A DNA stretch of 64,000 bases from Dehalococcoidia bacterium (GTDB taxonomy: Bacteria > Chloroflexota > Dehalococcoidia > UBA2979), in assembly GCA_041674885.1 (NCBI GenBank), contig JBAYUZ010000001.1, forward strand, positions 37,804 to 101,803, read 5' to 3'. Position 1 is the stretch's first letter. Each line of letters opens with the position of its first letter. This document shows, piece after piece, positions 16,427 through 53,867 of this stretch. The position numbers and the translations under genes are program-made. The notes under the pieces were generated by a model. That model was not told the origin of the DNA and made no database searches. It saw nothing but the letters and a program-made list of their open reading frames with translations.

Positions 16427-17608
16427 GTGGCGCGGATCCGCCGCGTCCGCCACCATCCCCCGGTGACGACCACCGACCGCCCGTCCGGGTACCGCTGGGT
16501 GATGCTGGGGCTGCTCTGCCTCGGCTACGGCTCGTTCGGCCTCGTGAGCGCCTCGCTCGCGCCGTTGCTCGGCCCGATCCTCCGCGACACCGGCATGACC
16601 CGCGCACAGGTCGGCCTCGTGCTCGGCTCCTGGCAGTTCGTGTACCTGTTCGTCGCCGTGCCTGCGGGCGCGCTGGTCGACCGCGTGGGGCTGCGTCGAG
16701 CGCTCTTCGCGGGCATCGCGCTCGTCGCGCTCTCGCAGGCGCTGCGCGCCTTCGCGTTCGACCAGTGGACCATGCTCGCCGCCGTGATGGTGTTTGGCCT
16801 CGGCGGCCCGTTCATCTCCGTCGGCGCTCCGAAGCTGACCGCCACCTGGTTCACCCGTGAGGAGGCCGGGCTCGCGCTCGGCATCTACACCGTCTCCCCC
16901 TCGGTCGGCAGCATCCTGGCGACCTCGACCGCGAACAGCGTGCTGATGCCCGCGACCGGCGAGAGCTGGCGCGCGACGCTCCTCGTCTACGCCGCCTTCG
17001 CCGCCGCGGCCGCGCTCGCCTGGCTGCTGCTCTCCCGCGAGCACGCCAGCGCCGGCAGCCGAGGCGGCACCGGCGGCTCCACGACGCAGGCCTTCGGCCA
17101 ACTGCTGCGCGTCCCCGTCGTGCAGCTCGTGCTGCTGATGGCGGTCGGGTGCTTCCTCGTGAACCACAGCCTGAACAACTGGCTCCCGGAGATGCTGCGG
17201 GCCGGAGGCATGACGCCCAGCAGCGCCGGCCTGTGGGCCTCGATCCCCACGCTCGTCGCCGTCGTCGCCGCGCTGCTGGTGCCGCGCTTCGCGCACGACC
17301 GCATCCTGACGACGGTGCAGCTCGTGGTGTTCGCGGTGTGGGGCGTCGGGCTGCTGCTCGTCTGGGTCGGTGGCGGCGCAATGCTGCCGCTCGGCCTCGT
17401 GCTCACCGGCATCGGCCGAGGCGCAGGCACGCCGCTGCTCATGCTCACGCTGCTGCGCTCCCCGCGCGTCGGCCCCGCGCTGATGGGCGCGGCCGGCGGC
17501 CTGTTCTTCACCGCCGGCGAGGTCGGCGGCGTGCTCGGCCCCGCGCTCACCGGCGTGCTCGCGGACGCCACCGGCGGCCGGAACGCTCGTTGCGGTGCAG
17601 ACGGGTGA
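16427..17608 (+). CDS. MFS transporter, terminated by an in-frame TGA before the last predicted TM helix (possible pseudogene or sequencing error)
   Basis: MFS-like protein with a GTG start. Downstream of the TGA at 17606-17608 the same frame continues as YAVTLVALATTCVVLALLALPLGAAS..., GC3-rich and TM-like, to a TAG at about 17762-17764. Confidence 0.6.
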   Translation: MARIRRVRHHPPVTTTDRPSGYRWVMLGLLCLGYGSFGLVSASLAPLLGPILRDTGMTRAQVGLVLGSWQFVYLFVAVPAGALVDRVGLRRALFAGIALVALSQALRAFAFDQWTMLAAVMVFGLGGPFISVGAPKLTATWFTREEAGLALGIYTVSPSVGSILATSTANSVLMPATGESWRATLLVYAAFAAAAALAWLLLSREHASAGSRGGTGGSTTQAFGQLLRVPVVQLVLLMAVGCFLVNHSLNNWLPEMLRAGGMTPSSAGLWASIPTLVAVVAALLVPRFAHDRILTTVQLVVFAVWGVGLLLVWVGGGAMLPLGLVLTGIGRGAGTPLLMLTLLRSPRVGPALMGAAGGLFFTAGEVGGVLGPALTGVLADATGGRNARCGADG

Positions 17609-17790
17609 ACTCCGCGAAGCGCAGCGGCAGGTCGCGGCTACGCCGTCACGCTGGTCGCCCTCGCTACGACCTGCGTGGTGCTCGCGCTGCTCGCACTCCC
17701 GCTCGGTGCGGCATCCCGCGCCGCACACGCCACCGCCGCCGCCCGCTAGCGTCGACCCGGCGCGCTCGCCACCGGGGTGCCACACACCTC

Positions 17791-17820
17791 CTGACGTTAT
17801 TGCTATAGTTCGCACTAGCC
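17791..17820 (+). promoter_or_regulatory. AT-rich patch with a TATAGT -10-like hexamer about 38 nt upstream of the Fur-family regulator gene. Candidate promoter and autoregulatory operator
   Basis: ctgacgttattgctatagttcgcactagcc stands out against the high-GC background. It contains the CTATAG palindrome. Confidence 0.3.
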
Positions 17821-17847
17821 ACCAGCACACGCACGAGGGTTCCACCT

Positions 17848-18285
17848 GTGCCGCACAACCAGTCGAGAGTCACCGAAGCGCTCCGCGCCAGCGGGCGCCG
17901 CCTCACCACGCAGCGCGCGCAGGTGCTGGCCGCGCTGCACGACCTGCCCGGCCACAGCACCGTCGATCAGATCCACGCCCGCGTCCGCGACTGCGGCGGC
18001 AACGAGGTCGCGCTGTCGACCGTCTACCGCAACCTCGACGCGCTCGTCGCGATGGGGCTGGTCGCCGCCTTCACCGGCGCCTCCGGCGGCACCACCTACG
18101 AGTGGACCGCCGAGGCCCATCACCACCTGCTCTGCGACGGCTGCGGCCACACGCAGGAGGTCGCCCTGCACGCCCTCGATGCCCTCGCCCGCGAGGTGCA
18201 GCGCGACCACGGCTTCGTCGCCGACATGCGGCACCTGGCGATCCACGGCCGCTGCGCCGGCTGCCGCGACTCGGAGGAACGCTGA
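17848..18285 (+). CDS. Fur-family metalloregulator, probably the nickel-responsive Nur type
   Basis: Fur-family fold with an HHH...CxxC metal site. GTG start with GAGGG 8 nt upstream. Immediately upstream of, and overlapping, a CbiM/NikM ECF transporter and near urease, hence the nickel suggestion. Confidence 0.8.
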   Translation: MPHNQSRVTEALRASGRRLTTQRAQVLAALHDLPGHSTVDQIHARVRDCGGNEVALSTVYRNLDALVAMGLVAAFTGASGGTTYEWTAEAHHHLLCDGCGHTQEVALHALDALAREVQRDHGFVADMRHLAIHGRCAGCRDSEER

Positions 18286-18986
18286 TGCTCGCTGCCCCCA
18301 TCACCACCGCGCTCGAGGCGGCAGCCGGGCCGGCGCTCCACATCCCGGACGGCTTCCTGAGCGCGCCCGTGTCGATCGTCGGCTGGGTCGTCACCGCGAC
18401 CGTCGTCACCGTCGCCGCGCGCCGCGCGGAGCGCACGTTGAGCGACCGCGCCGTCCCGCTCATGGGCGTGATGGCCGCGTTCATCTTCGCGGCGCAGATG
18501 ATGAACTTCCCGGTCGCCGGCGGCACCTCCGGTCACCTGCTCGGCGGTGCGCTCGCCGCCGCGCTGCTCGGGCCGTGGGCCGCGATCATCGTCATGACGG
18601 CGGTCGTCGGGCTGCAGGGGCTGCTGTTCCAGGACGGCGGCCTGCTGGTGATGGGCGCGAACATCTTCAACATGGGCATCGTGACGGTCGGCCTGTCGAC
18701 GCTGCTCTTCCGGCTCGCCCGCCCACTCGCCCGCGGCGGCACGGGCACCCTCATCGTCGCCTTCGTCGCCGCCTGGCTGACCGTCGAGGCGGCGGCGGCG
18801 CTCACCGCCTTGCAGCTCGCGCTCTCCGGCACGTCACCGCTTGAGATCGCGCTGCCCGCAATGCTCACCGTCCACGCGCTGATCGGCATCGGCGAAGGCC
18901 TGATCACCGTCGCCGCGCTCGCGTTCGTGCGCACGACCAGCCCGAACCTGCTCCCCGCCTCGCTCACGTCGGAGGTCGCACGATGA
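18285..18986 (+). CDS. ECF-type Ni/Co transporter substrate-capture subunit, CbiM/NikM family
   Basis: HIPDGFL N-terminal motif after a signal-like segment. Polytopic. TGATG overlap with the regulator gene. Confidence 0.8.
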   Translation: MLAAPITTALEAAAGPALHIPDGFLSAPVSIVGWVVTATVVTVAARRAERTLSDRAVPLMGVMAAFIFAAQMMNFPVAGGTSGHLLGGALAAALLGPWAAIIVMTAVVGLQGLLFQDGGLLVMGANIFNMGIVTVGLSTLLFRLARPLARGGTGTLIVAFVAAWLTVEAAAALTALQLALSGTSPLEIALPAMLTVHALIGIGEGLITVAALAFVRTTSPNLLPASLTSEVAR

Positions 18987-19282
18987 CCACTCGCCGCACG
19001 CTGCTGCTCACCGGTATCGCGATCGCCTTGCTGGTTGCCGCCGTCGCTTCGTTCGCCGCCTCGCCCGCGCCGGATGGCCTGGAGCGTGTCGCCGAGGATC
19101 AGGGGTTCCTGGAGCGAGCACAGGACGCGCGATACGAGCTGCTACCCGACTACACGATCCCCGGGCTGGGTGAGGGCCCACTCTCGACGGCCGCCGCCGG
19201 GGCGGTGGGCGTACTGGTCGTTGCCGCCGCCACGCTCGGCGCGGGCGCGCTGCTCCGCCGCCGTCACAAGCAGGAACAGTGA
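18983..19282 (+). CDS. PDGLE-domain small membrane protein (NikL/CbiN-like accessory subunit)
   Basis: 99 aa with two TM helices and a PDGLERV motif. ATGA overlap with the upstream gene. Confidence 0.6.
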   Translation: MTTRRTLLLTGIAIALLVAAVASFAASPAPDGLERVAEDQGFLERAQDARYELLPDYTIPGLGEGPLSTAAAGAVGVLVVAAATLGAGALLRRRHKQEQ

Positions 19283-20073
19283 GCGCCCTTGCCGCTTTCA
19301 CCGACCGCTACGTCGAACGATCGAGCCCGCTCCACCGCGCCGACGCGGCGGTGAAGCTGCCCGCCGTCCTCGCCTACGTGCTCGCCCTCGCGCTGACACG
19401 CGAGGCCGCGTGGGTGGTGCTCGCCGCCAGCGCCCTCCCCGTGGTGCTCGCCGCCGCGCTCGGTGGGTTCTCGCCGATGTTCCTGCTGCACCGCTCGCTG
19501 CTCGCGCTGCCGTTCGTCGCTGCAGCAGTGCCGTTGGCGTTCACCCGCCCCGGCGAGGTCGTCTTCGTGATGCCGCTCACCGGCTGGGACGCAAGCCGCG
19601 AGGGTATCGAGGCGGTCGCGACGATCCTCGCGCGCTCGTGGCTCTCCGTGCTCGCCGTCGTGCTGCTCACCGCCAGCACTCCCGTCGCCGAGCTGCTGCA
19701 TGCGCTCCGCACGCTGCGCGTGCCGCGCCTGCTGGTCGCCACCGTGTTCTTCACGTACCGCTACTTCCACGTCGTCGGCGACGAGGCGATGCGCATGATG
19801 CGCGCCCGCGATAGCCGCAGCGCCGCGCTCACCGATCGCCGCGCCGGTGGCACCATCACGTGGCGCGCCTCGGTGCTCGGCCACATGGTCGGCTCGCTGT
19901 TCATCCGCTCGCTCGACCGCAGCGAGCGCGTGCACGCGGCCATGCAGGCGCGCGGCTTCACCGGCGACCTCCGCTTCCTCACGACCGGCCGCGTGCGCGG
20001 CATCGATGCCGCAGCGGCGATCGTGCTCGTCGCGTACGCGTTCGCCGTGCAGGCGGCAGGGAGGCTGGCGTGA
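19279..20073 (+). CDS. ECF transporter transmembrane (T) component, CbiQ/NikQ family
   Basis: CbiQ-like hydrophobic profile. GTG start overlapping the previous stop. Confidence 0.75.
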   Translation: MSALAAFTDRYVERSSPLHRADAAVKLPAVLAYVLALALTREAAWVVLAASALPVVLAAALGGFSPMFLLHRSLLALPFVAAAVPLAFTRPGEVVFVMPLTGWDASREGIEAVATILARSWLSVLAVVLLTASTPVAELLHALRTLRVPRLLVATVFFTYRYFHVVGDEAMRMMRARDSRSAALTDRRAGGTITWRASVLGHMVGSLFIRSLDRSERVHAAMQARGFTGDLRFLTTGRVRGIDAAAAIVLVAYAFAVQAAGRLA

Positions 20074-20834
20074 CAGCGAACGGCACGACGCAGCCCGGCG
20101 TCCCCGCGCTCGACATCGAGGCGTTGCGCTACATCTACCCGGACGGCACGCACGGGTTGGACGACGTCTCGTTCCGCATCCAGCAGGGCGAGCGCGTCGC
20201 GCTCATCGGCCCGAACGGCGCCGGCAAGTCGACGCTGCTGCTCAACCTCAACGGCATCCTGCGCGCGCAGTCCGGCCGCGTCCGCGTCCTCGGCGAGGAG
20301 CTGACCGAGGCGTCCGCACGTTCCATCCGAGGCAAGCTCGGCCTGTTGTTCTCGAACCCCGATGACCAGCTGTTCTCGCCTACCGTCCTGGACGACGTCG
20401 CATATGGCCCGCTGCACATGGGCCTCGACCGCGACGAGGTGCTGCGCCGCTCGCGAGAGGCGCTGGCCGCCGTCGGCATGGCGGGCTTCGAGGATCGTGT
20501 GCCGCACCGCATGAGCCTGGGCCAGAAGAAGCGCGTCGCGATGGCGACCGTGCTCTCGATGGGCGCCCCGATCCTGCTGCTCGATGAGCCGACGGCCAGC
20601 CTCGACCCGGTCTCGCGGCGCGGACTGATCGAGCTGCTCGCGAGCCTCCCGCTCACGCTCATCGTCGCCACCCACGACCTCGCGATGGTCGACGACCTGC
20701 TGCCGCGCACGCTCATCCTCGATGGTGGTCGCGTGATCACCGACGGCCCCAGCCGTGACATCCTGAACGACGGCGAGTTGTTGCTCGCGCACCAGCTGGA
20801 GCCGCTGTCGATGCACGGACACCCGCATGCCTGA
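20070..20834 (+). CDS. ECF transporter ATPase, CbiO/NikO family
   Basis: ABC ATPase (GPNGAGKSTLL, LSLGQKKR). GTGA overlap with the cbiQ-like gene. Confidence 0.85.
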   Translation: MTANGTTQPGVPALDIEALRYIYPDGTHGLDDVSFRIQQGERVALIGPNGAGKSTLLLNLNGILRAQSGRVRVLGEELTEASARSIRGKLGLLFSNPDDQLFSPTVLDDVAYGPLHMGLDRDEVLRRSREALAAVGMAGFEDRVPHRMSLGQKKRVAMATVLSMGAPILLLDEPTASLDPVSRRGLIELLASLPLTLIVATHDLAMVDDLLPRTLILDGGRVITDGPSRDILNDGELLLAHQLEPLSMHGHPHA

Positions 20835-22265: not shown

Positions 22266-24716
22266 ATGACCCGACCCTGCGACGACCTCCTCGTCCTCGA
22301 CCTCAGCAGCGGACGCGCGCCCGGCATCGCCACGATGGTGCTCGCCGACTTCGGCGCCGACGTCGTGAAGATCGAGCCGCCCGGCGGCGACCCCGAGCGC
22401 AGCGACCCCTCCTCGCCCATGTGGCTCCGAGGCAAGCGCAGCGTCGTCCTCGACCTCACCACCGCCGAGGGCCGTGCAGCGCTCCACCGCCTCGTGCCCG
22501 GCGCCGATGTCGTGGTCGCCTCGTACGCCCCCGGCGTCGCCGAGGCGCACGGCGCGGACTACGCGACGCTCTCCGCGCTCAACCCGCGCCTCGTCTACGC
22601 GTCGGTCACCGGCTGGGGCCCGCGCGGCGCCTACGCCGCCTACCCCGCCGACGAGTCGCTGGTCGCCGCGAAGTCCGGCCGCATGCGCGCGTTCGGCATG
22701 GTCGCCCGCAACGACGCCCCCGGCTTCACCGCCGTGCAGGTCGGCGTCCACGGCGCTGCGCAGTCGACGATCGCCGGCATCCTCGCAGCCCTCGAGGTGC
22801 GCGACCGCTCCGGCGTCGGCCAGCTCGTGGAGTCCAGCCTGCTGCAGGGCATGTTCCCGTTCGACTTCAACGGCCTGCCGCGCGAGCAGATGATCAAGAA
22901 GTTCCCCGACCGCGTGCAGAGCGACCTCTTCGCGCAGCTCACGAACCCGGACGGCATGTCCACGCTCGGCTACCAGCCCGTGCGCACGAAGGACGGCCAG
23001 TGGCTCCAGTTCGCGAACCTGCTGGAGCACCTGTTCCAGTCCTCGGTCGTCGCACTCGACCTCACCGGCGAGATCCTCGCGAACCCGGCCTACGAGGGCG
23101 CTCCGAACCGCCTCACCCCGGAGGCGCGCGAGGAGGTGCGGAACATGATGCTGCTCCGCGCCCGCGAGAAGACCGCCGCCGAGTGGATGGACCTGTTCAA
23201 GGAGAACGGCAACGTCGCCGCCGACTACGTGATGACCGCGCAGGACGCGCTGCATCACCCCGACATGCTCGCGAACGGCGACATCGCCGAGGTCACCGAC
23301 CCCAGCCTCGGCGTCGTACGCCAGCTCGGCCTGCTCGCGAAGCTGCGCGACACCCCCGGCGCGATCGAGCGTCCCGCCCCCGCCGTCGGCCAGCACACCG
23401 CCGAGGTGCTCGGCGCACCTGCGCGCGACCCCGGCGCTGTCGTCGCCCCCAACGGCGACGCGCGTGCCCCGCTCGCCGGCGTCACCGTCCTTGAGTTCGC
23501 GACGATCATCGCCGCGCCCTTCTCGTGCGCGCTGCTCGCCGACCTCGGCGCTCGCGTCATCAAGATCGAGCCGACCAACGGCGGCGACCCGATGCGCGGC
23601 ATGGGTGGCGCTGGCTTCAACTCCTACTTCGGCATCGCGAAGACGACCGCCGGCAAGGAGAGCATCTGCATCGACCTGAAGGATCCGGCCGGCCAGGAGA
23701 TCGTCCGCCGCCTGGTCGCGGACGCCGATGTCATCGTCCACAACTACCGGCAGGGTGTCCCGGAGCGCCTCGGCATCGGCTACGAGCAGGCGCGCCAGAT
23801 CCGCCCGGACATCATCTGGGTCAGCGTCAGCGGCTACGGCCCCGACGGCGACAGCGCGACGCGGCCCTGCGCCCACCCGATCCCCGGCGCCGTGAACGGC
23901 GGCGCGCTCATGCAGTGCGGCCACGGCTGGGAGCCCGAGAACATCGACACGCTCGAGGGGCTGCGCGAGGCATCGCGCCGCTTCTTCCGCGCGAACGAGG
24001 GCAACCCCGACCCGTGCACCTCGGTCGTCGCCACCTCCGCGACCATGCTCGCTCTCCGCGCGCGCACCCGGACGGGTCGAGGCCAGCAGGTGTTCGTCTC
24101 CATGCTGCAGGCGAACGGCTACGCGAACGCGGACGACTTCCTCTCCTACCCCGGCAAGACGCCGCGCCCGGAGATCGACGCCGAGGTCTTGGGCACCGGC
24201 CCGCTCCGCCGCCTCTACCGCGCCTCGGACGGCTGGGTCTGCCTGAGCCTGCCCACGCAGGCGCAGTGGCTCGCGTTCTGCGCCGCCTCGGGCGCAGCGC
24301 TGAGCGGAGACGCACGCTTCGCCACCGCCGAGGCGCGCGAGCAGCACCACGACGCCCTCGCCGAGGCGCTTGGCACGCACCTCGCCACCCGCACCGCCGA
24401 CGACTGGGAGCGCCTGCTCGCGCCGCAGGGCGTCGGCTGCGTGCGCGCGGACGGCGTGACCGGCGCGGGCGACTTCTTCCTCAACGACCCGCAGATCGAG
24501 GCGAACGGCTGGGCGAAGCTCGCCACGCACCCCGTGATGGGCGAGTACCGGCGCTGGGGCCCCGTGGTGACCTTCGAGGCCACCCCCGGCCGCTACGGCC
24601 CCGGCGTCCTCGCCGGCCAGCACACCGACCAGCTCCTGGCCGAGGTCGGCTACGAGCAGGCCGCGGTCGCCGACCTCTACGCGAAGGGCATCGTCTGGGC
24701 CGACCACCCGGAGTAG
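22266..24716 (+). CDS. Tandem-domain family III CoA-transferase (two fused CaiB/BaiF-like modules)
   Basis: An 816-aa protein. Both halves carry the CaiB/BaiF signature (DLSxxxAGP..., VVKIEPPGGDP / VIKIEPTNGGDP). Confidence 0.8.
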   Translation: MTRPCDDLLVLDLSSGRAPGIATMVLADFGADVVKIEPPGGDPERSDPSSPMWLRGKRSVVLDLTTAEGRAALHRLVPGADVVVASYAPGVAEAHGADYATLSALNPRLVYASVTGWGPRGAYAAYPADESLVAAKSGRMRAFGMVARNDAPGFTAVQVGVHGAAQSTIAGILAALEVRDRSGVGQLVESSLLQGMFPFDFNGLPREQMIKKFPDRVQSDLFAQLTNPDGMSTLGYQPVRTKDGQWLQFANLLEHLFQSSVVALDLTGEILANPAYEGAPNRLTPEAREEVRNMMLLRAREKTAAEWMDLFKENGNVAADYVMTAQDALHHPDMLANGDIAEVTDPSLGVVRQLGLLAKLRDTPGAIERPAPAVGQHTAEVLGAPARDPGAVVAPNGDARAPLAGVTVLEFATIIAAPFSCALLADLGARVIKIEPTNGGDPMRGMGGAGFNSYFGIAKTTAGKESICIDLKDPAGQEIVRRLVADADVIVHNYRQGVPERLGIGYEQARQIRPDIIWVSVSGYGPDGDSATRPCAHPIPGAVNGGALMQCGHGWEPENIDTLEGLREASRRFFRANEGNPDPCTSVVATSATMLALRARTRTGRGQQVFVSMLQANGYANADDFLSYPGKTPRPEIDAEVLGTGPLRRLYRASDGWVCLSLPTQAQWLAFCAASGAALSGDARFATAEAREQHHDALAEALGTHLATRTADDWERLLAPQGVGCVRADGVTGAGDFFLNDPQIEANGWAKLATHPVMGEYRRWGPVVTFEATPGRYGPGVLAGQHTDQLLAEVGYEQAAVADLYAKGIVWADHPE

Positions 24717-28320: not shown

Positions 28321-29754
28321 ATGGCGAACCCCACCGCCCCCATCACCTACAGCGACGCCGAGGCCGAGAACGGGCACCCACCGCCTGACCAGGATCTCGT
28401 GCTCGTCGGCGCCACGGGCGATCTCGCGCGCCGCAAGCTGCTCCCCGCGCTGTACGAGATGTCGCGCAGCGGCATGCTGCCCCGGCACGGCCAGATCATC
28501 GGTTACGCCCGCACCGAACCGGAGCGCGGCGACTTCCGCGCGCTTGCGCTCGCCGCCGTCGCCGATGGCACCCGCGAGGCCCTCGATCCTGCGCAGGTGA
28601 TGCGCTTCGTCGACCGCCTCCAGTTCGTGCACGCCGAGGCCGGTGCGCTCGCGGAGGTGCAGCGCCGCTGCACGCAGGATCAGCGCCTCATCTACCTCGC
28701 CACGCCTCCCGGCGCGTACGCCTCGATCGCACGCGAACTGCAGGAGGCCGGGCTCGCCGACGACGCTCGCATCGTGATCGAGAAGCCGTTCGGCAGCGAC
28801 CTCGACAGCGCGCGTGCGCTCGACCGCGAGCTGAGCGCGATCGTCGACGAGTCGCGCCTGTTTCGCATCGATCACTACCTGGGCAAGGAGACCGTGCGGA
28901 ACATTCTCGTCTTCCGCTTCGGCAACTCGCTCTTCGAGCGCTCCTGGAACCGCGACGCGATCGACCACGTCCAGCTCACTGTCGCGGAGGCTGACGGCGT
29001 CGAGCGCCGCGGCGCGTTCTACGAGGAGGTGGGGGCGCTCCGCGACGTGATGCAGAACCACCTGCTCCAACTCCTCGCGCTGCTCGCGATGGAGCCGCCC
29101 GGCTCCTTCTCCGCGGACGCCGTGCGCGCGGAGCAGGCGAAGCTGCTGCAGGCCGTCCAGCCGATGTCCCCCGCGCGCTTCGTCCGAGGCCAGTACACGA
29201 CCGGCGGCCATCACTCCGGCTACCGCGACGAGCCCGGCGTCGACCCCAACTCCGAGGCCGAGACCTATGCTGCGGCCGAGGTGCGCATCGACAACTGGCG
29301 GTGGAGCGGCGTGCCGTTCTACCTGCGCACCGGCAAGCGCCTCGCGCGCCGCGTCACGGAGCTGCAGGTCGTGTTCCGCTCCGTGCCCACCTCGTTCTTC
29401 ACCGGCGCGGGGATCGCGGAGTTGCCGGACAACCACCTCACGATCCGCATCCAGCCGGAGCAGGGCATCTCATTCAACTTCGCCGCGAAGGTGCCCGGCC
29501 CGCGCGTCCTCGTGCACCCCGCACGCATGCAGTACCGCTACGGTGCCGAGGACGATGCATACGAGCGCCTGCTGTACGACGCGATGCGCGGCGACCAGAC
29601 GCTGTTCGTGCGAGAAGACGCGCTGGAGGCGGCCTGGCGCATCGTCCAGCCGGTTCTCGATGCCCCCCCGCCGCTCAACTTCTACCCGGCCGCCTCGTGG
29701 GGCCCGTCGGCGGCCGACGCACTCATCCACCCGCGCGCCTGGCACCTCCACTGA
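28321..29754 (+). CDS. zwf: Glucose-6-phosphate 1-dehydrogenase
   Basis: NADP-binding GATGDLA motif and the RIDHYLGKE active-site motif. Start at MANPTAPITY. Confidence 0.85.
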   Translation: MANPTAPITYSDAEAENGHPPPDQDLVLVGATGDLARRKLLPALYEMSRSGMLPRHGQIIGYARTEPERGDFRALALAAVADGTREALDPAQVMRFVDRLQFVHAEAGALAEVQRRCTQDQRLIYLATPPGAYASIARELQEAGLADDARIVIEKPFGSDLDSARALDRELSAIVDESRLFRIDHYLGKETVRNILVFRFGNSLFERSWNRDAIDHVQLTVAEADGVERRGAFYEEVGALRDVMQNHLLQLLALLAMEPPGSFSADAVRAEQAKLLQAVQPMSPARFVRGQYTTGGHHSGYRDEPGVDPNSEAETYAAAEVRIDNWRWSGVPFYLRTGKRLARRVTELQVVFRSVPTSFFTGAGIAELPDNHLTIRIQPEQGISFNFAAKVPGPRVLVHPARMQYRYGAEDDAYERLLYDAMRGDQTLFVREDALEAAWRIVQPVLDAPPPLNFYPAASWGPSAADALIHPRAWHLH

Positions 29755-29801
29755 GGGGCGGCGCTCGACCGGGGCAGGCGCCGCGCCGCCGCCTCGGCCC
29801 G

Positions 29802-31661
29802 CTACCCGTCCGCGAGCAGGTCGCGCACCGCCTGCGCGATGTGCGTCGCATCAATGCCCGCCACGCCACGCAGCTCCGCGGGCTGCCCCGACCCCGGCAG
29901 CTCACGCACCGCCAGCAGACGGACGCGCGCCGATGCATCCGAGGCTGCCAGCGCGCTCAGCACCGCCTCGCCCAGCCCGCCCTCCGCCTGGTGATCCTCC
30001 ACGGTGACGATGCGTCCCGTCTCCACCGCCGCGGTTCGCAGCACCTCCGCGTCGATCGGCTTCACCGAGTACGCGTCGATCACCCGCACCACGACGCCCT
30101 CATCCGCGAGCTGCTGTGCCGCTGCCAGCGCCTCGTGCACCGTGATCCCCGCGGCGACCACCGTCGCGCGATCCTCGGTCGAGGCGCGGAGCACGCGCGA
30201 TCCGCCGACCGCGAACGCCTCGCCCGACGCGTAGATCACGGGCGTCGCCTCGCGCGTCGTACGCAGGTACACGATGCCGTCGAGGTCGGCCATCGCGTCC
30301 ACCAGCCACGCGGTCTGGTTCGCGTCGCACGGGTACAACACCGTGCTCCCCAGCACCGCGCGGAACATCGCGAGGTCCTCGAGCCCCATCTGCGACGGCC
30401 CGTCCTCCCCCACTGACACGCCCGCGTGCGATCCCACCAGCTTCACGTTCGCGCGGCTCACCGCCGCCATCCGCACGAAGTCGTACGAGCGCGCCTGGAA
30501 CGCTGCGAACGTCGAGGCGTACGGCGTCCAGCCCCGCACCTGTGTTGCCACCGCCGTCGCCACCAGCTGCTGCTCCGCGATGAACAGCTCGATGTACCGC
30601 TCCGGGTGCGCCTGCGCGAACAGCTCCGCATACGTCGAGTTCTTCACCTCGGCGTCGAGCGCCACGATGTCGCCTCGCGCTGACCCGAGCGCCGCCAGCG
30701 CCTCGCCGTACGCGCGCCGCGTCGACATCTGCGACCCCAGCGCGTACTGCGGCGCGACCAGCGAGGTGTTCACAGGCGCCCGCATCACCACGCCGTCGCC
30801 CGACGGCGGCGTGACCACCACATGCACCGCCTGCGCGCCGCCCAGCGCCTCGATCGCCCCCTTCGCGTCATCGAGCGGTCGGCCGTGCTGTCCCTCGCGA
30901 TCCGCGACCGCCGGCGCACCCTCCCCCTTCACCGTGCGCGCCACGATCAGCGTCGGTCGCGCCTCCTCGGTGACCGCCAGCCGGTACGCCTGGTCGATCG
31001 CCTGCAGGTCGTGCCCGTCGATCTCGATCGCCGTCCAGCCGCACGCCCGTGCGCGCGCGCTGTACGCGCCCAGATCCCAGCCGTGCATCGTCGGCCCGCT
31101 CTGCCCCAGCCGGTTCACATCGAGGATCGCCGTGAGGTTGCCCAGCCCCCAGTAGCCTGCGTGCTCCAGTGCCTCCCACATCGACCCCTCGGCCATCTCG
31201 CCGTCGCCGCAGAGCACCCACGTGCGGTAGTCGAGGTGGTCGAGTCGCCGCGCGGTGAGCGCCAGGCCGACGCCGATCGGCAGCCCCTGCCCCAGGGAGC
31301 CGGTCGCCACGTCCACCCACGGCAGCACCGGCGTCGGGTGGCCCTGCAGGCGACTGCCCAGCGTGCGGAACGTCAGCAGCTCCGCATCGCTCACCGCACC
31401 CGCCGCGTGGAACATCGCGTACAACAGCGGGGAGGCGTGCCCCTTCGAGAAGATGAGGTGGTCGTTCGTCGCGCGCTCCGGGTGCGCGAAGTCATAGCGC
31501 AGGTAGCCCGCCAGCAGCACCGCCATGAGGTCGGCGGCGGACAGCGAGGACGTGGGGTGCCCGGAGTGCGCCGCCGCGCTCACGCGGATCGAGTCGACGC
31601 GCAACGCCGCTGCAAGGTCTCGCCACTGGTCGATGCGTTCACGGGTCGTGTGAGTCTGCAT
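29802..31661 (-). CDS. tkt: Transketolase
   Basis: TPP-binding HSGHP... and GDG motifs. A ~619-aa short-form TKT. Start at MQTHTTRERIDQW. Confidence 0.85.
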   Translation of the reverse strand: MQTHTTRERIDQWRDLAAALRVDSIRVSAAAHSGHPTSSLSAADLMAVLLAGYLRYDFAHPERATNDHLIFSKGHASPLLYAMFHAAGAVSDAELLTFRTLGSRLQGHPTPVLPWVDVATGSLGQGLPIGVGLALTARRLDHLDYRTWVLCGDGEMAEGSMWEALEHAGYWGLGNLTAILDVNRLGQSGPTMHGWDLGAYSARARACGWTAIEIDGHDLQAIDQAYRLAVTEEARPTLIVARTVKGEGAPAVADREGQHGRPLDDAKGAIEALGGAQAVHVVVTPPSGDGVVMRAPVNTSLVAPQYALGSQMSTRRAYGEALAALGSARGDIVALDAEVKNSTYAELFAQAHPERYIELFIAEQQLVATAVATQVRGWTPYASTFAAFQARSYDFVRMAAVSRANVKLVGSHAGVSVGEDGPSQMGLEDLAMFRAVLGSTVLYPCDANQTAWLVDAMADLDGIVYLRTTREATPVIYASGEAFAVGGSRVLRASTEDRATVVAAGITVHEALAAAQQLADEGVVVRVIDAYSVKPIDAEVLRTAAVETGRIVTVEDHQAEGGLGEAVLSALAASDASARVRLLAVRELPGSGQPAELRGVAGIDATHIAQAVRDLLADG

Positions 31662-31736
31662 ACGCCGAGCGTAGGAACCGCGTGCTGGCGATTCCGCGCC
31701 CACCTCGCGCGCCACGTTGCAGCGCGCTCACAACCG

Positions 31737-32405
31737 CTATGCGTCGCCCCTGCCGTCCAGGCGCGCGATCACCGTCGTCCCCGCCGCGACCCGCTCCCCG
31801 GCCGCAACGAGCACCTGCGTCCCCGCGGGCAGCCGCAGCGTGACCTGCGATCCGAACTTGATCATCCCCAGCCGCTGCCCCTGCTCGACGCGATCCCCCG
31901 CCTCGACCCAGGTGACGATGCGCCGCGCGACCAGCCCGCTGATCTGCGTCACCGTGCACGGCCCCGCCGAGGTCTCCAGGTACGTCGCCAGCTGGTTGTT
32001 GCCGTGCGTCGCCGCCTCGGTCATCGCGGGACGGTAGCCGCCCGCCTTCCGCCGCACCCCCAGCACCGTCCCCGCCAGCGGGAACCGCTGCACGTGCACG
32101 TTCCAGAGCGCGAGGAAGATCGCGACCTCCACCATCTCAGTCTGCCAGTAGTCGTCGAACACCGGCCCGACGCGCAGCACCGTGCCGTCGGCGGGCGAGA
32201 GTGCGACGCTCGCGTCGGCCTGCACCGCGCGCTCGGGGTCGCGGAACGCGTACCAGACCAGGCCCGCCGCGACGAACGCCGCGATACCGACCGGCGGCAC
32301 GAGGAGCAACGAGAGAGCACCGATCACACCGAGCGGCAGCAAGAGCGCCGCACCCTCAGTCAGCGGCCGCCAGCGGCCGCTCCCCCGCGGTCGAGGCGCC
32401 GTCAA
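31737..32405 (-). CDS. psd: Phosphatidylserine decarboxylase (small archaeal-type Psd proenzyme)
   Basis: About 220 aa, N-terminal TM, Psd family, with the GMIKFGS self-cleavage-type motif. Confidence 0.75.
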   Translation of the reverse strand: MTAPRPRGSGRWRPLTEGAALLLPLGVIGALSLLLVPPVGIAAFVAAGLVWYAFRDPERAVQADASVALSPADGTVLRVGPVFDDYWQTEMVEVAIFLALWNVHVQRFPLAGTVLGVRRKAGGYRPAMTEAATHGNNQLATYLETSAGPCTVTQISGLVARRIVTWVEAGDRVEQGQRLGMIKFGSQVTLRLPAGTQVLVAAGERVAAGTTVIARLDGRGDA

Positions 32406-32995
32406 CGCTTGCGAGGCTGGCGAGCGTGCAGCAACAGCACCGGCGGCACATTCAGCGGGTGAAACTCGCGCCGCACCTGCTCGAACTCCGCGCGCAGGTA
32501 CGGCAGTAGGAACGTCGGATGGTACTGCAGCGCCACCAGCACGCCACCGGGGCGCAGCGCCTCGCCGGCCGCGTGGAGCACGGCTCGCGTCAGCTCCGGC
32601 CCCATCAAGCTGAACGGCAGCGAGGAGATCACGGCGTCGAAGCCCTGCTCCAGCTCTCGCTTGGCGTACGCTGCCACCTGCTCCGCCGACTCCTGCAGCA
32701 GCTCGAAGCGTGCGTCATCCACGTGCTCGCGCAGGTGCTCCAGGAACGGCTCGTAGATCTCGAAGCCGACCAGGTGCCCGTGTCGGGGCAGCGCCGCCAG
32801 CAGCTCGTGCGTGATCGCGCCGGTGCCCGGCCCCAGCTCCGCGACGTGCGTGGCCTCGCCCAGGCCGCCCAGCCGAGCCATGTGGCGCGCAACGCCCCGA
32901 CTCGTCGCCTTCACGGCGCCGATGGTGTTACGAGCGGACAGGAATGCCTTCAGGAACGAGGACGATGCGCCCTCAGGGGCGGGGCGAGGGGGCAC
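32402..32995 (-). CDS. Class I SAM-dependent methyltransferase (candidate phospholipid N-methyltransferase by context)
   Basis: SAM-binding motif VAELGPGTGAIT. Sits between pssA and psd with 4-nt and 23-nt overlaps. Confidence 0.55.
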   Translation of the reverse strand: MPPRPAPEGASSSFLKAFLSARNTIGAVKATSRGVARHMARLGGLGEATHVAELGPGTGAITHELLAALPRHGHLVGFEIYEPFLEHLREHVDDARFELLQESAEQVAAYAKRELEQGFDAVISSLPFSLMGPELTRAVLHAAGEALRPGGVLVALQYHPTFLLPYLRAEFEQVRREFHPLNVPPVLLLHARQPRKR

Positions 32996-36220: not shown

Positions 36221-36229
36221 GGAACTCTG

Positions 36230-36718: not shown

Positions 36719-36721
36719 CCG

Positions 36722-37159: not shown

Positions 37160-37227
37160 CGTCGCCCCCTCCCCACCCAACCTCGAAGCCTCAGCCTCGA
37201 ACGTCCCGCGATGATACCGTCCCGCGC

Positions 37228-37743: not shown

Positions 37744-37829
37744 CGCACGCCATCACGGCAGCCACACGGTCCGGAGGCGCGTCCCCTCGGCCCCGCCTAT
37801 CATGGTCATGCAGCATTCGAGGGGTTCAC

Positions 37830-38891
37830 ATGGATCGCGCCGCCCGCCTGCACGCCCTCCACGACGCACTCCGCGAGCGCATCCTCGTGCTCGACGGCGC
37901 GTGGGGCAGCCTGATCCAGCGCTATGGGCTGGAGGACGCCGACTTCCGCGGCACCCGCTTCGCGAACTGGCCCGCCGACCTGAAGGGCAACCCCGACCTG
38001 CTCAACCTCACGCGCCCCGACATCGTGCGCGAGATCCACGACCGCTACATCGAGGCCGGGTGCGACATCACCTCGACCAACACGTTCACCTCCAACCGCA
38101 TCGCCCAGGCCGACTACCGCCTGGAGGACGTCGCGCAGGAGATGAACGAGGCCGGCGCGCGCATCGCCCGCGAGGCCGCCGATGCCGCGCAGGCGCGCGA
38201 CGGTCGCCTCCGCTGGGTCGCGGGCTCGATCGGCCCCACCAACCGCACCGCCTCGATCTCCCCGGACGTGAACGACCCCGGCGCGCGCAACGTGACCTTC
38301 GAGGACCTCCGCGCCGCCTACGCCGAGGCCGTGCGCGGCCTGATGGACGGCGGCGCCGACATCCTGCTCATCGAGACGATCACCGACACCCTGAACGCGA
38401 AGGCAGCCGTCTTCGCCGCCGAAGACGTGTTCGAGGAGCGTGGCGAGGAGGCGGCGATCATCCTGAGCGGCACGATCGTCGACCGTTCCGGCCGCACCCT
38501 CTCCGGGCAGACGCTGGAGGCGTTCTGGACCTCGCTCTCCCACGCCCGCCCGCTTGCGATCGGCCTCAACTGCGCGCTCGGCCCGCAGGAGCTGCGCGCG
38601 CACATCGCGGAGCTCGCGCGTATCGCCGACGTGCCCGTCGCCGCCTACCCCAACGCCGGCCTGCCGAACGAGTTCGGCGGCTACGACGAGACGCCGGAGC
38701 AGATGGCCGCCGCGCTCGGCGCGTGGGCCGGCGAGGGCATCGTGAACATCGTTGGCTCCTGCTGCGGCAGCACCCCGGAACACACGCGCGCGATCGTCGA
38801 GGCCGTGCGCGGCCTCCGGCCGCACGTCATCCCGGATCACCGCGCGACGATGCAGCTCGCGGGCCTCGAATCCGTCGAGATCGGCGCCTAG
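37830..38891 (+). CDS. metH: Methionine synthase MetH, homocysteine S-methyltransferase (Hcy-binding) domain, encoded as a separate ORF
   Basis: Hcy-binding domain with the zinc-ligand cysteines ([18 protein letters not shown]). Ends at a TAG at 38889-38891; the next ORF starts in frame at the adjacent ATG. Confidence 0.85.
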
Positions 38892-41570
<2,679 letters not shown>

Positions 41571-41580
41571 TCGTTCGTCG

Positions 41581-42438
41581 CTACGCGCCGAAGCCGAGGT
41601 TGCGCGCGATCGTGCGCGCCGGCTCGCTGAAGTTGAGCGTGTACAGGTGCACGCCCGGCGCGCCCGCCGCCAGCAGCGCCTCACCGAGGCGCGTCGCGAC
41701 GTCGATCGCGATCTCGCGCCGCGCATCGAGGTCCTCGCCCGCCGCCTCCAGGCACGTGCGCAGCGCCGCCGGGAACTCGGTGCCGTTCATCGCCGACATC
41801 GCGGCGACGCGGTCGGCGTTCGTCGGCGGCATCACGCCCGGGATCACCGGCGTCGTCACGCCGCGCGCTGCCATCGCCTCGACGAACCGCTCGTAGTGCG
41901 CGACGTCGAAGAAGAACTGCGTGATCGCGAAGTCTGCCGCCGCCAGCTTCTGCGCGTGGTGATCGAGGTCGTCCGCCCGCGACGCCGCGCGCGGGTGCCC
42001 CTCCGGGTGCGCCGCCACGCCGATCGCCCAGTCCACCCGCTCCCGCACGAACCGCACGAGGTCGATTGCGAGCCGGAAATGCTCGCTCGGCAGCTCCGAG
42101 GATCCGTCCGGCAGGTCGCCGTGCAGCGCCAGCAGGTTGCGCACGCCCATCGCCTGGTACGCATCGATCACCGCGCCAACCTCGGCGCGCGTGTGCGCGA
42201 CGCAGGTGAGGTGCGGCATCGCCGTCGTGCCGCGATCGAGGATGCCGCGCACGACCTCGCTCGTCGGCCCACGCGAGGATCCGCCCGCGCCGTAGGTCAC
42301 CGACATGAACGCCGGCCGCAGCGCCGACAGTCGGTCGATCGTGCGCGCCAGCCGCTCCTGCCCCTCGGCATCCCGAGGCGCGGAGAACTCGAACGACAGC
42401 GTGCGCCCGGCAGCGAGCAGGTCAGGGATGCGAGTCAT
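41581..42438 (-). CDS. metF: 5,10-methylenetetrahydrofolate reductase
   Basis: MetF family (FEFSAPRD...VTYGAGG...HLTC). Start at MTRIPDLL with GGAG 6 nt upstream. The track ORF is extended upstream. Confidence 0.85.
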   Translation of the reverse strand: MTRIPDLLAAGRTLSFEFSAPRDAEGQERLARTIDRLSALRPAFMSVTYGAGGSSRGPTSEVVRGILDRGTTAMPHLTCVAHTRAEVGAVIDAYQAMGVRNLLALHGDLPDGSSELPSEHFRLAIDLVRFVRERVDWAIGVAAHPEGHPRAASRADDLDHHAQKLAAADFAITQFFFDVAHYERFVEAMAARGVTTPVIPGVMPPTNADRVAAMSAMNGTEFPAALRTCLEAAGEDLDARREIAIDVATRLGEALLAAGAPGVHLYTLNFSEPARTIARNLGFGA

Positions 42439-42499
42439 GCGCTCCATCATTGCCGCCGCGCGCGCGAGCGTACAGCGCGGCATCGCACCGGCCCCTCGG

Positions 42500-43774
42500 C
42501 TACCCGCCGAGCGCCTTCGCCGCGCCGAGGCCCGCGACCTGCCCGCTCGACCACGCCCACTGGAAGTTGTAGCCGCCGATGCGCCCGTCGACATCCAGCA
42601 CCTCGCCGCAGAGGTGCACGCCCGGCGCCACGCGCGACTCCATCGAGTCGAGGCGCACCTCCGCCAGCGGCACCCCGCCCGCCGTCGCCTCGGCGTTCGC
42701 CCAGCCGCGCGTCCCCGTCACCGGCACCGGCGCATCGAGCACCGCGCGCACCAGCGCACGGCGCTCCTCGCGCCGCAGCGCGTGGCCCGCCGCGCCGGCA
42801 TCGACGCCCGCCGCGTCGCACAACGCCCGCGCAAGCCGCGCCGGCAGCCCGCACTCGCCGAGGTAGCGCCCCACCGTGCGTGCCCCCAGCCCCTGCAGCG
42901 CCGCATCGAGCTGCTCCGTGCTCACGTCGGGCAGCCAGCGCACGACCATGCTTGCCCCCGCGTCGTCCGCCACCGCCGCCTGCCAGTGCCGGCTCGCGTC
43001 CATCGCCGCGGGGCCCGACAGCCCGAAGTGGGTACACAGCACCGCCCCGGCGATCGAGGCGAGGCGCTTCCCGCTGCCGCTCCGCACCTCGACCGCCGCC
43101 TCCGTGGCAATCCCCGCCAGCTCGCGCACGAAGTGGCCCTCCGCGACGGTAAGCGCGACCAACGCAGGGAACTGTCGCACGACGCTGTGGCCGAGGCTCC
43201 GCGCGAACGCGAACCCCGCGCCGTCACTCCCCGACCGCGGCAGCGACCGCCCGCCCGTCGCGAGGATCACGCGCCGCGCCTCGATCGCCCCCCACGCCCC
43301 GCGCACGAGATAAGACGCAGCCTCGTCGTCACCGACGCGCTCGATCGTCTCCACGCGGCAGGGGTGGCGAATCTCCGCGCCCGCCTCGCGCGCCGCGCGC
43401 AGCAGCGCGTCGAGCACGGTGCGCGCGCTGTCGGTGGTCGGGAAGAGCTTGCCGGTCTCCTCGCGCTTCAGCCGCACGCCCAGGTCGGCGAAGAACGCGA
43501 TCGTCTGCTCCACGGTGAACCGACGCAGCACGTTCCGGATCGCGGCGGGCGTCGAGCCCGCATACGCGCGCTCGTCCACCACGTCGTGCGTGACGTTGCA
43601 GCGCCCCCCGCCCGCGACGAGGATCTTGGCACCGAGCACGCGTGCACCATCGAGCACGATCGGTCGCGCCCCGGCGCGCCCTGCGGCGATCGCCGCCATC
43701 AGCCCCGCCGCCCCCGCCCCGACAATGACGAGGTCGACCTGTTCGACTCGTCCCGCCTCGACCGCCTCGCTCAC
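42500..43774 (-). CDS. HI0933/BaiN-family FAD-dependent oxidoreductase
   Basis: GAGAAGLMAA dinucleotide-binding motif. HI0933-like architecture. GTG start. Confidence 0.7.
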   Translation of the reverse strand: MSEAVEAGRVEQVDLVIVGAGAAGLMAAIAAGRAGARPIVLDGARVLGAKILVAGGGRCNVTHDVVDERAYAGSTPAAIRNVLRRFTVEQTIAFFADLGVRLKREETGKLFPTTDSARTVLDALLRAAREAGAEIRHPCRVETIERVGDDEAASYLVRGAWGAIEARRVILATGGRSLPRSGSDGAGFAFARSLGHSVVRQFPALVALTVAEGHFVRELAGIATEAAVEVRSGSGKRLASIAGAVLCTHFGLSGPAAMDASRHWQAAVADDAGASMVVRWLPDVSTEQLDAALQGLGARTVGRYLGECGLPARLARALCDAAGVDAGAAGHALRREERRALVRAVLDAPVPVTGTRGWANAEATAGGVPLAEVRLDSMESRVAPGVHLCGEVLDVDGRIGGYNFQWAWSSGQVAGLGAAKALGG

Positions 43775-51991: not shown

Positions 51992-52507
51992 ATGCCGGAC
52001 GCTATCGACCCCACATCAGCCTCGGCGGTGCCGCCGCTGCGCTTCGTGACGCTCGCGCAGGCGCGCGCGCTGGAGTGCAACGGCTGCGGCGACTGCTGCG
52101 ACACGCGGCGCACCGACGGCTACTGGGCGTGGAGCGCACTGCCGGAGGACGGCTTCGCCTCGATGACCGGCGGGGAGCCGCTGATCATCCCGATCGAGCG
52201 CATCGAGGGCGGCGACGGCTGGCGCGACCGCGCGTGGCAGCCGGACGACGCCTCGGAGTTCCTGCCGACGCTCTTCCGCTGCTCCGCGTTCCGCGAGCAG
52301 GAGGACGGGCGCGGGCTGTGCGGTCGGCACACGCTGGAGCGCCCGAGCGTCTGCGCGGAGTTCCCGGTGCACGTGATCGGCCTCGACCGTGACGTGGCGG
52401 AGCTGGGCGAGGTGCCGCTGCTGACGGGCGCGCTGCCGCGCTGCACGTGGTATCGCATGACGGTCGTGCGCGACGACGATCCTCGAGTGGAGGCCAGCGA
52501 TGGGTGA
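51992..52507 (+). CDS. YkgJ-family CxxCxxCC cysteine-cluster protein
   Basis: CNGCGDCC motif. The start is uncertain. Confidence 0.55.
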   Translation: MPDAIDPTSASAVPPLRFVTLAQARALECNGCGDCCDTRRTDGYWAWSALPEDGFASMTGGEPLIIPIERIEGGDGWRDRAWQPDDASEFLPTLFRCSAFREQEDGRGLCGRHTLERPSVCAEFPVHVIGLDRDVAELGEVPLLTGALPRCTWYRMTVVRDDDPRVEASDG

Positions 52508-52865
52508 GCTCACGGGGGTCGTGCGCTTCACGTTCCACGACGCGGCGAGCGTGGAGGCGTTCAAGCGCATCTCGGCGGAGTGCATGGCGGTCGTGCGCGC
52601 GCAGGACATCGGCACGCTGCAGTACGACACCTACTTCAACGCCGATGAGTCGCAGGCGATGGTGATCGAGCGGTTCACCGACTCGGCGGCGCTCATCGAG
52701 CACAGCCAGCACCTCGCCGCGTTCATGGAGCCGATCCTCGCGACGGGGACGGTGAGCGGCGAGCTGCTCGGCCAGCCGAGCCCAGAGCTCGCCGCGCTGC
52801 TCACGGGCGACAACCCGCAGCTGTTCCTCCCCTACTCGTCGCTGCGCGAGGCGACCGAGGGCTAG
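52500..52865 (+). CDS. ABM-domain (antibiotic biosynthesis monooxygenase-like) protein
   Basis: About 120-aa ferredoxin-like ABM pattern. ATG overlaps the previous gene. Confidence 0.55.
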   Translation: MGELTGVVRFTFHDAASVEAFKRISAECMAVVRAQDIGTLQYDTYFNADESQAMVIERFTDSAALIEHSQHLAAFMEPILATGTVSGELLGQPSPELAALLTGDNPQLFLPYSSLREATEG

Positions 52866-53413
52866 CGCCAGTCCCAGCGCACGACCGGCGCGTTGCGCGC
52901 GCCCACCTTCGCGGGGGCATCGGCGCGCGGCAGACCGATGTTCACGAGCGAGACCACCTGCTCCCCCGGCGCGAGACCGAGGTGCGTGCGGGTCGCCTCG
53001 TACGTCAGGATGCCGCCGGTGCTGAGGTGCGCCGCCAGGCCCTCGGCGTGGGCGGCGAGCAGCAGGTTCTGCAGCGCGCACCAGCAGGCGGCGTAGTCCT
53101 CGCGCTCACGCTCAGCGGTGTCGGCGGCGATCTGCGTGACGAACAGCGCGACGGGCGCGCGCAGCAGCTTGGAGCGCGCGGAGGTGCCGATGCCCTCGGG
53201 CATGGCGTTCGCGGCGGCCCATGCGGCGATCGCGTCGGCGATGGCGTCGCGGCCGGTGCCCGCGAGCACGTGGAAGCGCCACGGCTCGGTGTGGCGGTGG
53301 TTCGGCGCCCAGGTCGCGGCATCGAGGAGTCGTTCGATCACTTCGCGTGACGGCGCTTCCGGCGCGGATGCCTCCAGATCGCGGCGGCCCCGGATCGCCT
53401 CGTACAGCTCCAT
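52862..53413 (-). CDS. Nitroreductase-family protein
   Basis: Nitroreductase fold similarity. Start at MELYEAIRGRRD. Confidence 0.7.
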   Translation of the reverse strand: MELYEAIRGRRDLEASAPEAPSREVIERLLDAATWAPNHRHTEPWRFHVLAGTGRDAIADAIAAWAAANAMPEGIGTSARSKLLRAPVALFVTQIAADTAEREREDYAACWCALQNLLLAAHAEGLAAHLSTGGILTYEATRTHLGLAPGEQVVSLVNIGLPRADAPAKVGARNAPVVRWDWR

Positions 53414-53504
53414 CGCGCACCCCCTCGAAGGCACCGTAGCGCATCGGACGGCGGGCGGTGGCTGATTCGGCTACCATCACGGCCGTCGTAGCAAGGAGTC
53501 TGCC

Positions 53505-53867
53505 ATGCCCGAGCCAGTCGTCCACGTCGCCGGCCCCACGTTGGAGCGATTCGAGGAGGTGCTGACGCCGGAAGCGCTGCGGTTCCTGGGGCTGCTGGAG
53601 TCGACGTTCGGGGCGCGGCGGCGGGAGCTGCTGGCGGCGCGCGCGGTGCGGCAGGCCGCGATCTCGGCGGGCGCAAACCTCGACTTCCTGCCGGAGACGG
53701 CGGCGGTGCGCGCGGGTGACTGGAAGGTCGTGCCGCCCGCGCCGGGGCTCGAGGATCGGCGCGTCGAGATCACGGGGCCGACCGAGCAGCGGATGACGAT
53801 CAACGCGCTCAACTCCGGCGCGCGCGTCTGGCTCGCGGACTTCGAGGATGCGAACGCGCCGTTCTGA
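53505..53867 (+). CDS. aceB: Malate synthase A, N-terminal 120 aa, ending at an in-frame TGA that sits where the family's conserved Trp should be
   Basis: Collinear with the E. coli AceB N-terminus (DRRVEITGP...ADFED). The stop aligns with the W of the family's conserved PDW. Confidence 0.6.
   Translation: MPEPVVHVAGPTLERFEEVLTPEALRFLGLLESTFGARRRELLAARAVRQAAISAGANLDFLPETAAVRAGDWKVVPPAPGLEDRRVEITGPTEQRMTINALNSGARVWLADFEDANAPF

Follow-up and report, generated by a model that had tools for sequence, protein, structure and literature searches.

Do in-frame stop codons that lie near one another in a genome, each followed by what is clearly more of the same coding sequence, point to a common cause? 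The question is raised by a stretch of 64,000 nucleotides from a Dehalococcoidia bacterium (assembly GCA_041674885.1, contig JBAYUZ010000001.1, positions 37,804 to 101,803; this whole stretch is called the window), in which a major facilitator superfamily (MFS) transporter gene is interrupted by TGA at 17606-17608, the methionine synthase gene metH by TAG at 38889-38891, and the gene for malate synthase A by TGA at 53865-53867. A preliminary description of this DNA had seen one shared pattern in the three sites. The stops are indeed present at these positions, and profile matches assign the pieces flanking each of them to one protein family. Nevertheless, the shared pattern does not hold, because the three sites have three unrelated causes: we consider it likely that the stops really exist in one uncultured Chloroflexota population, and that they arose independently through a fission of metH, a nonsense allele of malate synthase and a templated insertion in the MFS gene.

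Three stops in one consensus of an uncultured population

The evidence consists of assembled contigs, namely the window itself, MEGAHIT contigs of ENA analysis ERZ27247358 and Logan contigs of SRR6484325, and covers a single 64-kb window of the genome, whose GC content is approximately 71% throughout and whose coding frames can be read from a third-position GC (GC3) above 0.9. The MEGAHIT contig k141_2272689 agrees base for base with the window over 12266-34716 (22,451 nt, the MFS insert included) and over 28892-41663, and exact-protein look-ups show that Logan contigs match the window as well. These exact matches to metagenome assemblies bear out the earlier suggestion that the sequence stems from a metagenome-assembled genome (MAG), and the homologues carry the names of Chloroflexota or Dehalococcoidia MAGs. 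A second MEGAHIT contig, k141_2175477, differs from the window over 43874-64000 by 18 clustered single-nucleotide polymorphisms (SNPs), and at 52272 and 53242 the Logan contig carries the same alleles as the MEGAHIT contig (the same interval compared with L002 and L088); the window is therefore one more consensus, the third, of a mixture of strains. What we analyze here is one consensus of an uncultured Chloroflexota population, and public databases contain two or more further assemblies of the same data or of data related to them.

Two of the three stops sit in insertions relative to their homologues, one of 60 nt in the MFS gene and one of about 14 codons in a metH linker, a feature that goes beyond what had been described, and these two are therefore not simple substitutions in conserved sequence. 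Four more pairs of open reading frames (ORFs) abut in the same frame and proved to be mere neighbouring genes (urtA/urtB at 4942, PKD/MFS at 16399, pgi/zwf at 28239 and GGDEF/PAPS reductase at 35410). Ongoing gene decay, one of the causes proposed earlier, fits malate synthase and the MFS gene and does not fit metH. The density of such events had also been called high, but the true lesions are two in about 55 genes. Pseudogene rates of about 3% are typical for free-living bacteria, and at this rate the probability of at least two lesions in 55 genes is about 0.49 (hand calculation), so that the observed density is unremarkable.

A two-gene methionine synthase

Judged by sequence comparison, the metH of the window is a conserved gene fission with stop-start coupling, and the in-frame arrangement of its two genes is incidental. 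The ATG of the second gene, at 38892, directly abuts the TAG of the first. The second protein matches positions 338-1182 of TIGR02082 with 1221.3 bits, which places it above the full-length cut-off unaided, and it reaches 1545.6 bits on NF007024 against a cut-off of 1497 (domains and coordinates are given in Table 1). Compared with 120 fused MetH homologues, the linker that leads from the homocysteine domain to the pterin domain is longer in the window, and both the TAG and the following ATG fall inside this extension of about 14 codons.

Among the matches listed in a protein homologue search, all were fused proteins with at most 67% identity; the closest relatives emerged instead when GTDB species genomes were scanned with the first ORF (353 aa). 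In all three genomes recovered in this way (L004, L005 and L006), the first ORF stops at the same domain boundary as in the window and translation can restart immediately, and the second ORFs are intact (896, 908 and 897 aa, respectively) and 76-79% identical to the 892 aa of the window. In more distant Chloroflexota metH is fused. The reading of metH as a defective gene thus gives way to that of a conserved split gene with a shared boundary, as in the cases compiled elsewhere (PMC7311316). Pyrrolysine at the TAG was considered and rejected, since L006 has TGA at the junction and continues in a different frame.

The MetH of Burkholderia phytofirmans has the same two-part split (PMC7311316), and in nine genomes the split of MetH, being shared by relatives, was accepted as genuine (PMC7311316); moreover, three-part and two-part forms are genetically supported in Phaeobacter and Sphingomonas (PMC5764234, PMC7857596). 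Like the two-part enzymes of B. phytofirmans (BPHYT_RS02310/BPHYT_RS02305) and Sphingomonas koreensis (GapMind, PMC7311316, PMC7857596), that of the window has the homocysteine S-methyltransferase domain on a protein of its own, the adjacent protein holds the pterin-binding, B12 cap, B12-binding and reactivation domains, and the split is kept among related genomes. Unlike them, it occurs in a Chloroflexota/Dehalococcoidia-like clade, and the fission is therefore probably independent of the known ones; its junction also differs in having a lineage-specific linker extension and stop-start coupling (TAGATG, TAGGTG or ATGA). Translational coupling would produce both proteins, with the second gene starting on the codon after the stop of the first, and the two proteins, whose architecture and conservation are apparent from the genomes compared, presumably assemble into a working enzyme.

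The surroundings of metH offer further observations. Directly upstream of the first gene lies a 171-aa protein with a GGQ/RF-1 domain only (37228-37743, plus strand), which is ArfB-like and scores below every NCBIfam cut-off. On the other side, metF (MTHFR; 41581-42594, minus strand) is convergent with metH. The contig k141_2272689 equals the window up to 41663, then carries a metF version that is about 78% identical (L001 12690-13520), and then ends. The two versions therefore represent two divergent metF alleles or strains in one sample.

A nonsense codon at an invariant tryptophan of malate synthase A

The TGA in the malate synthase gene is very probably a real, dominant nonsense allele. 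Joined across the stop, the two pieces yield a protein of 525 aa, the same length as its closest homologues (95-97% identical), with a score of 786.9 bits on TIGR01344, as compared with a cut-off of 594.5. The column that corresponds to the TGA is Trp in 120 out of 120 homologues, with no indel, and the codon at this site is TGG in the relatives L084, L093 and L094 (93-94% nucleotide identity). The same TGA is shared by the window, the ERZ27247358 MEGAHIT contig and an SRR6484325 Logan contig that spans the site, all of which differ from one another by SNPs elsewhere.

The pattern of substitution along the gene bears on the age of this allele. Between the window and L084 there are 66 synonymous and 20 nonsynonymous codon differences, of which 52 and 11, respectively, fall in the part after the stop. 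The window lineage alone has 16 synonymous and five nonsynonymous changes (four missense changes and the stop itself) and no indels, and the corresponding lineage-specific changes in the relatives are 26/3, 22/6 and 32/13 (synonymous/nonsynonymous). In comparison with these relatives, an excess of missense changes or indels, as expected from relaxed selection after the stop, was not seen. The ratio in the window lineage resembles those of the relatives, which indicates that purifying selection acted on malate synthase until very recently, or still does. Hence, the substitutions suggest that the change from TGG to TGA is recent or else that the gene is still in use, i.e., that the stop is either recent or tolerated.

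We propose that a single G-to-A change turned the invariant Trp codon into TGA, and that this would be a recent allele that is now dominant in the population. In all likelihood the stop leaves the cell with no enzyme or with far less of it. Small amounts of wild-type malate synthase could persist through tRNA-Trp, the classic near-cognate reader of UGA, and translation might conceivably start again at the ATG located 6 nt beyond the stop and yield a 402-aa fragment. In having a single transition at a conserved Trp codon, the gene is like an ordinary nonsense pseudogene or a leaky UGA, and, as with the former, relatives with 93-94% nucleotide identity have intact orthologues. It is unlike an ordinary nonsense pseudogene in that no decay has so far set in downstream of the stop and in that an ATG follows so closely. 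Selenocysteine at this UGA was rejected as a candidate: the site is Trp in all of the 120 homologues and never Cys, the sequence has no fold resembling a selenocysteine insertion sequence (SECIS; z -0.51), and Rfam finds no SECIS there.

An inverted thrS fragment in a transporter gene

The stop in the MFS gene lies in an insertion of 20 codons (GRNARCGADG*TPRSAAAGR) between transmembrane helices 11 and 12 (TM11 and TM12) that is without counterpart in all 11 aligned homologues, one of which is 92% identical. In a DNA alignment with the relative L085, the insertion appears as a clean 60-nt gap flanked by repeated GCGGC. Its GC3 in the MFS frame is about 0.5, a dip deeper than in any other gene of the window (0.44, with the next at 0.61), and its reverse complement reads as typical coding sequence, encoding RDLPLRFAEFTRLHRNERSG. 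A wobble-degenerate DNA pattern scan of JGI metagenomes for the donor matched three contigs, all of them at class II motif 2 of threonyl-tRNA synthetase (thrS). One of these, L090 (Ga0172380_10004309), has a thrS ORF with a score of 668 bits on TIGR00418 and matches window positions 17577-17637, read as reverse complement, at 61 of 61 nt; outside this block the window continues as MFS and L090 as thrS. The junctions show microhomology of 2 nt (GC) on the left and 4 nt (GCGG) on the right, and in comparison with L085 no target bases were lost.

With the identity of the donor and both junctions in hand, the insert is best read as a microhomology-mediated templated insertion. We infer that 55-61 nt of the organism's thrS were copied in inverted orientation into the codons for the TM11-TM12 loop, probably via template switching during replication or break repair; by chance the insert is 60 nt long, which keeps the frame, and this piece of thrS read backwards holds a TGA. 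Like the microhomology-mediated templated insertions known from template switching, microhomology-mediated break-induced replication (MMBIR) and the 'filler DNA' of alternative end joining (alt-EJ), this one has a short ectopic donor of 55-61 nt, here inverted, with 2-4 nt of microhomology at both junctions and an intact target sequence. Unlike them, it comes from a natural metagenome population only, and the copied sequence (thrS, class II motif 2) belongs to an essential housekeeping gene. Within the window we found no other copies of the insert (each half searched, with up to three mismatches), and a GC3-dip scan of all genes revealed no other foreign inserts; local repeat analysis revealed neither terminal inverted repeats nor transposon-like features at the insert. 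The transporter, as predicted from its sequence, would end before TM12 and would probably be inactive. Two further MFS genes lie just upstream of the damaged one, and because of them its loss may cost little.

A stop-containing, non-coding gap in a coding sequence with identical codons on either side is also what programmed bypassing looks like in T4 gene 60 and in the byps of Magnusiomyces mitochondria, and the GGC codons flanking the 60-nt insert could serve as take-off and landing sites. The matching codons are, however, accounted for by the junction microhomology; and the MFS gene is unlike these systems in that the stop lies 10 codons past the putative take-off codon rather than adjacent to it, no stable hairpin is found (folding is no more stable than that of shuffled sequence, z +1.12), and the gap is not conserved, being missing from all relatives and demonstrably a fragment of thrS. 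Together with the arguments against selenocysteine in malate synthase, where the site is never Cys, and against pyrrolysine in metH, where L006 uses TGA in another frame, this makes programmed recoding at any of the stops extremely improbable.

Assembly artefacts and strain variation

If the stops were assembly or consensus errors, the real genome would have three intact genes. The sequence is derived from a metagenome, clustered SNPs separate the window from public contigs of the same data, and there is a break in the Logan assembly within the MFS insert, where one contig ends at 17606 and the next starts at 17608, both being 100% identical to the window. All of this could be taken as a sign of faulty assembly. 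The break is nevertheless informative. In a Logan graph, which we take to have k=31, a 61-nt repeat at 17577-17637 predicts that each flank enters the repeat by 30 nt, i.e., it predicts both break coordinates; therefore, a second context of the 61-mer is probably present in the same sample, presumably thrS itself. Both insert junctions are covered by Logan contigs, so that the insert is joined to MFS sequence on both sides, and the whole insert is present in a MEGAHIT contig built with k=141, from which it follows that the insertion is not a mis-join; indeed, 2 and 4 nt of microhomology fall far short of what would cause one in a de Bruijn graph. Furthermore, the TGA of malate synthase was reproduced by two other assemblers, and the metH stop is kept in three other genomes from other studies. 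Consensus errors, which had been suggested as a source of all three stops, are thus very unlikely, as two of the sites recur in both the MEGAHIT and the Logan assemblies.

Population heterogeneity is a related explanation, according to which the stops are minor alleles that were picked by the assembler while most cells carry intact genes. Strain-level SNPs do exist between the assemblies, and two metF versions that are about 78% identical occur in the same sample. On the other hand, the Logan contig passes through the malate synthase TGA without a break, and at the MFS gene the Logan contig enters the insert by 30 nt, with no break at 17578/17579, where an allele free of the insert would branch. 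In addition, no intact copy more than 97% identical was found among the protein matches. We regard it as quite unlikely that intact alleles prevail in the population.

Stop-codon usage and readthrough

High-GC3 ORFs of at least 120 aa in the window end in TAG in 20 cases, in TGA in 16 and in TAA in two (n=38). TAG is thus the commonest stop, and it is similarly common in related Chloroflexota loci (L004-L006, L090, L093 and L094). At about 70% GC, TGA is usually the dominant stop; the preference for TAG looks like a lineage trait. A global reassignment of stop codons had been judged unlikely from the outset, and our results bear this out: TGA terminates pgi, zwf, fur and cbiQ, and the last two (145 and 264 aa) are equal in length to their orthologues in the relative L085. 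A code in which TGA is sense (tables 4 and 25) was rejected on the grounds that 16 of the 38 ORFs end in TGA and that just one TGA falls on a conserved Trp. With TGA being a normal terminator of ORFs whose lengths match those of homologues, there is no change of the code.

A milder form of the same idea is that readthrough of UGA is elevated or tolerated, in which case malate synthase would be completed with Trp, as in the wild type, and the transporter would be made with a loop insertion of 20 residues. Both true lesions are TGA, that of malate synthase lies exactly on a Trp codon, which the near-cognate tRNA-Trp could read, and the MFS insert is in frame; the lineage shows no excess of missense changes in malate synthase, and TAG, not TGA, is the commonest stop in the window and in its relatives. 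However, a recent mutation explains the signal of purifying selection equally well, and TGG to TGA is the commonest kind of nonsense transition. Only one Trp position appears as TGA in about 55 genes, whereas 16 of 38 well-supported ORFs end in TGA at lengths that match their homologues. No tRNA gene, and hence no suppressor tRNA, was found in the 64-kb window; there is no special structure at the TGA sites, as local RNA folding is no better than that of shuffled sequence at either of them, and an Rfam scan of the window returned no relevant match at the stops and no SECIS, its sole match being to 5_ureB_sRNA. The insertion in the transporter, being rich in Arg and situated in a short, predicted periplasmic loop, would probably be harmful even if read through. 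For these reasons we consider readthrough of this kind unlikely.

A bolder version can be formulated, namely that a high-GC Chloroflexota lineage with a preference for TAG terminates poorly at UGA, that tRNA-Trp decodes the UGA at Trp121 of malate synthase often enough for selection to act on the protein, and that the cell partly tolerates lesions with an in-frame UGA, among them the MFS insert from thrS. We hold this to be highly improbable; if it were true, poor termination at UGA would represent an early, facultative stage in the capture of UGA by Trp in a GC-rich genome, where theory expects such capture least. There remains a small possibility of some residual elevated leakiness of UGA, at which only the preference for TAG stops and the position of the malate synthase stop on a Trp codon hint.

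Table 1. Features at the three in-frame stops of the window and junctions of the related two-gene metH loci
Feature	Position	Strand	Remarks
MFS transporter (CynX/NimT-like), truncated ORF	16427..17608	+	393 aa, TM1-TM11; Pfam MFS_1 residues 30-372; homologues 397-436 aa
In-frame insertion of 60 nt carrying TGA	17574..17633, or equivalently 17579-17638	+	GCGGC repeated at both ends; not in 11/11 aligned homologues
MFS remainder	17609..17749	+	Second half of insert, TM12, native C-terminus ending TAG 17747-17749; aligns to C-termini of all homologues (GYAVTLVALATTC...)
metH part 1, stand-alone homocysteine S-methyltransferase domain	37830..38891	+	353 aa; stop TAG 38889-38891; Pfam S-methyl_trans (PF02574) residues 19-326; TIGR02082 positions 2-338
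metH part 2, pterin-binding, B12 cap, B12-binding and reactivation domains	38892..41570	+	892 aa; PF00809, PF02607, PF02310, PF02965
Malate synthase A, N-terminal 120 codons	53505..53867	+	Ends TGA 53865-53867, replacing invariant Trp codon TGG
Malate synthase A remainder, TIM barrel and C-terminal domain	53868..55082	+	Pfam MS_TIM-barrel, MS_C; first ATG 53874; stop TAG
metH junction, window			GCC TAG ATG
metH junction, L004 (Chloroflexi MAG ZH-3nov15-188)			GGC TAG ATG; first-ORF aa identity 75%
metH junction, L005 (Dehalococcoidia MAG)			GCC TAG GTG; first-ORF aa identity 65%
metH junction, L006 (Dehalococcoidia MAG)			ATGA overlap, second ORF in different frame; first-ORF aa identity 67%

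Other features of the window

The genes that come next after the damaged MFS gene (17848-20834, plus strand) encode, in this order, a Fur-family regulator, CbiM, a PDGLE protein, CbiQ and an ABC ATPase. The order is kept in L085, and together the genes look like a cobalt/nickel uptake system of the energy-coupling factor (ECF) type. Further along, a CoA_transf_3 protein of 816 aa (22266-24716, plus strand) is about double the usual length and may consist of two family III CoA-transferase modules fused in tandem. The 5_ureB_sRNA match from Rfam (65 bits; 9744-10031, plus strand) lies antisense within the urease alpha gene ureC (8485-10227, minus strand), and probably reflects conservation of the coding sequence rather than a small RNA. 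Beside ureG, ureC and ureA, the GC content falls to 0.66-0.67 at 2000-6000, over the genes of a urea ABC transporter (a urtA-like substrate-binding protein, a permease and an ATPase).

Conclusions

Several points count against three independent causes in the form proposed here. One read set, or closely related ones, may underlie all three assemblies; their independence is thus one of assemblers and not of samples. Malate synthase still bears the marks of selection, as would also be expected with readthrough or with an enzyme made in two pieces, and the loss of function is itself predicted from the sequence. As for the insert, a donor thrS in the same genome is deduced only from the Logan breaks and the identity to a JGI contig, and a single-base polymorphism at 17607 would give the same pattern of breaks; we set the SNP aside as the less likely cause of the break, because the 61-nt repeat fits better and predicts both coordinates exactly. 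Finally, the two-part form in the window lineage is presumed to have MetH activity on the strength of its domains and their conservation. Taken with the evidence above, a metH fission, a malate synthase nonsense allele and a templated insertion in the MFS gene remain our preferred explanation of the three stops.

No general principle is changed by the lesions in malate synthase and the MFS gene, and the two-part architecture of MetH is already in the literature. The thrS-derived insert, however, provides a clean natural example of an inverted, ectopic, microhomology-mediated templated insertion in an uncultured bacterium, and shows that the break points of contigs in k-mer assemblies can reveal a donor repeat. 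The three sites also call for caution, in that an in-frame stop with continuing coding sequence can be a conserved fission, a fresh nonsense allele or a templated insertion, and comparison with close relatives alone tells these apart. For the lineage studied here the distinction matters most in metH, which annotation pipelines would wrongly call a pseudogene, leading to a prediction of methionine auxotrophy for the clade.

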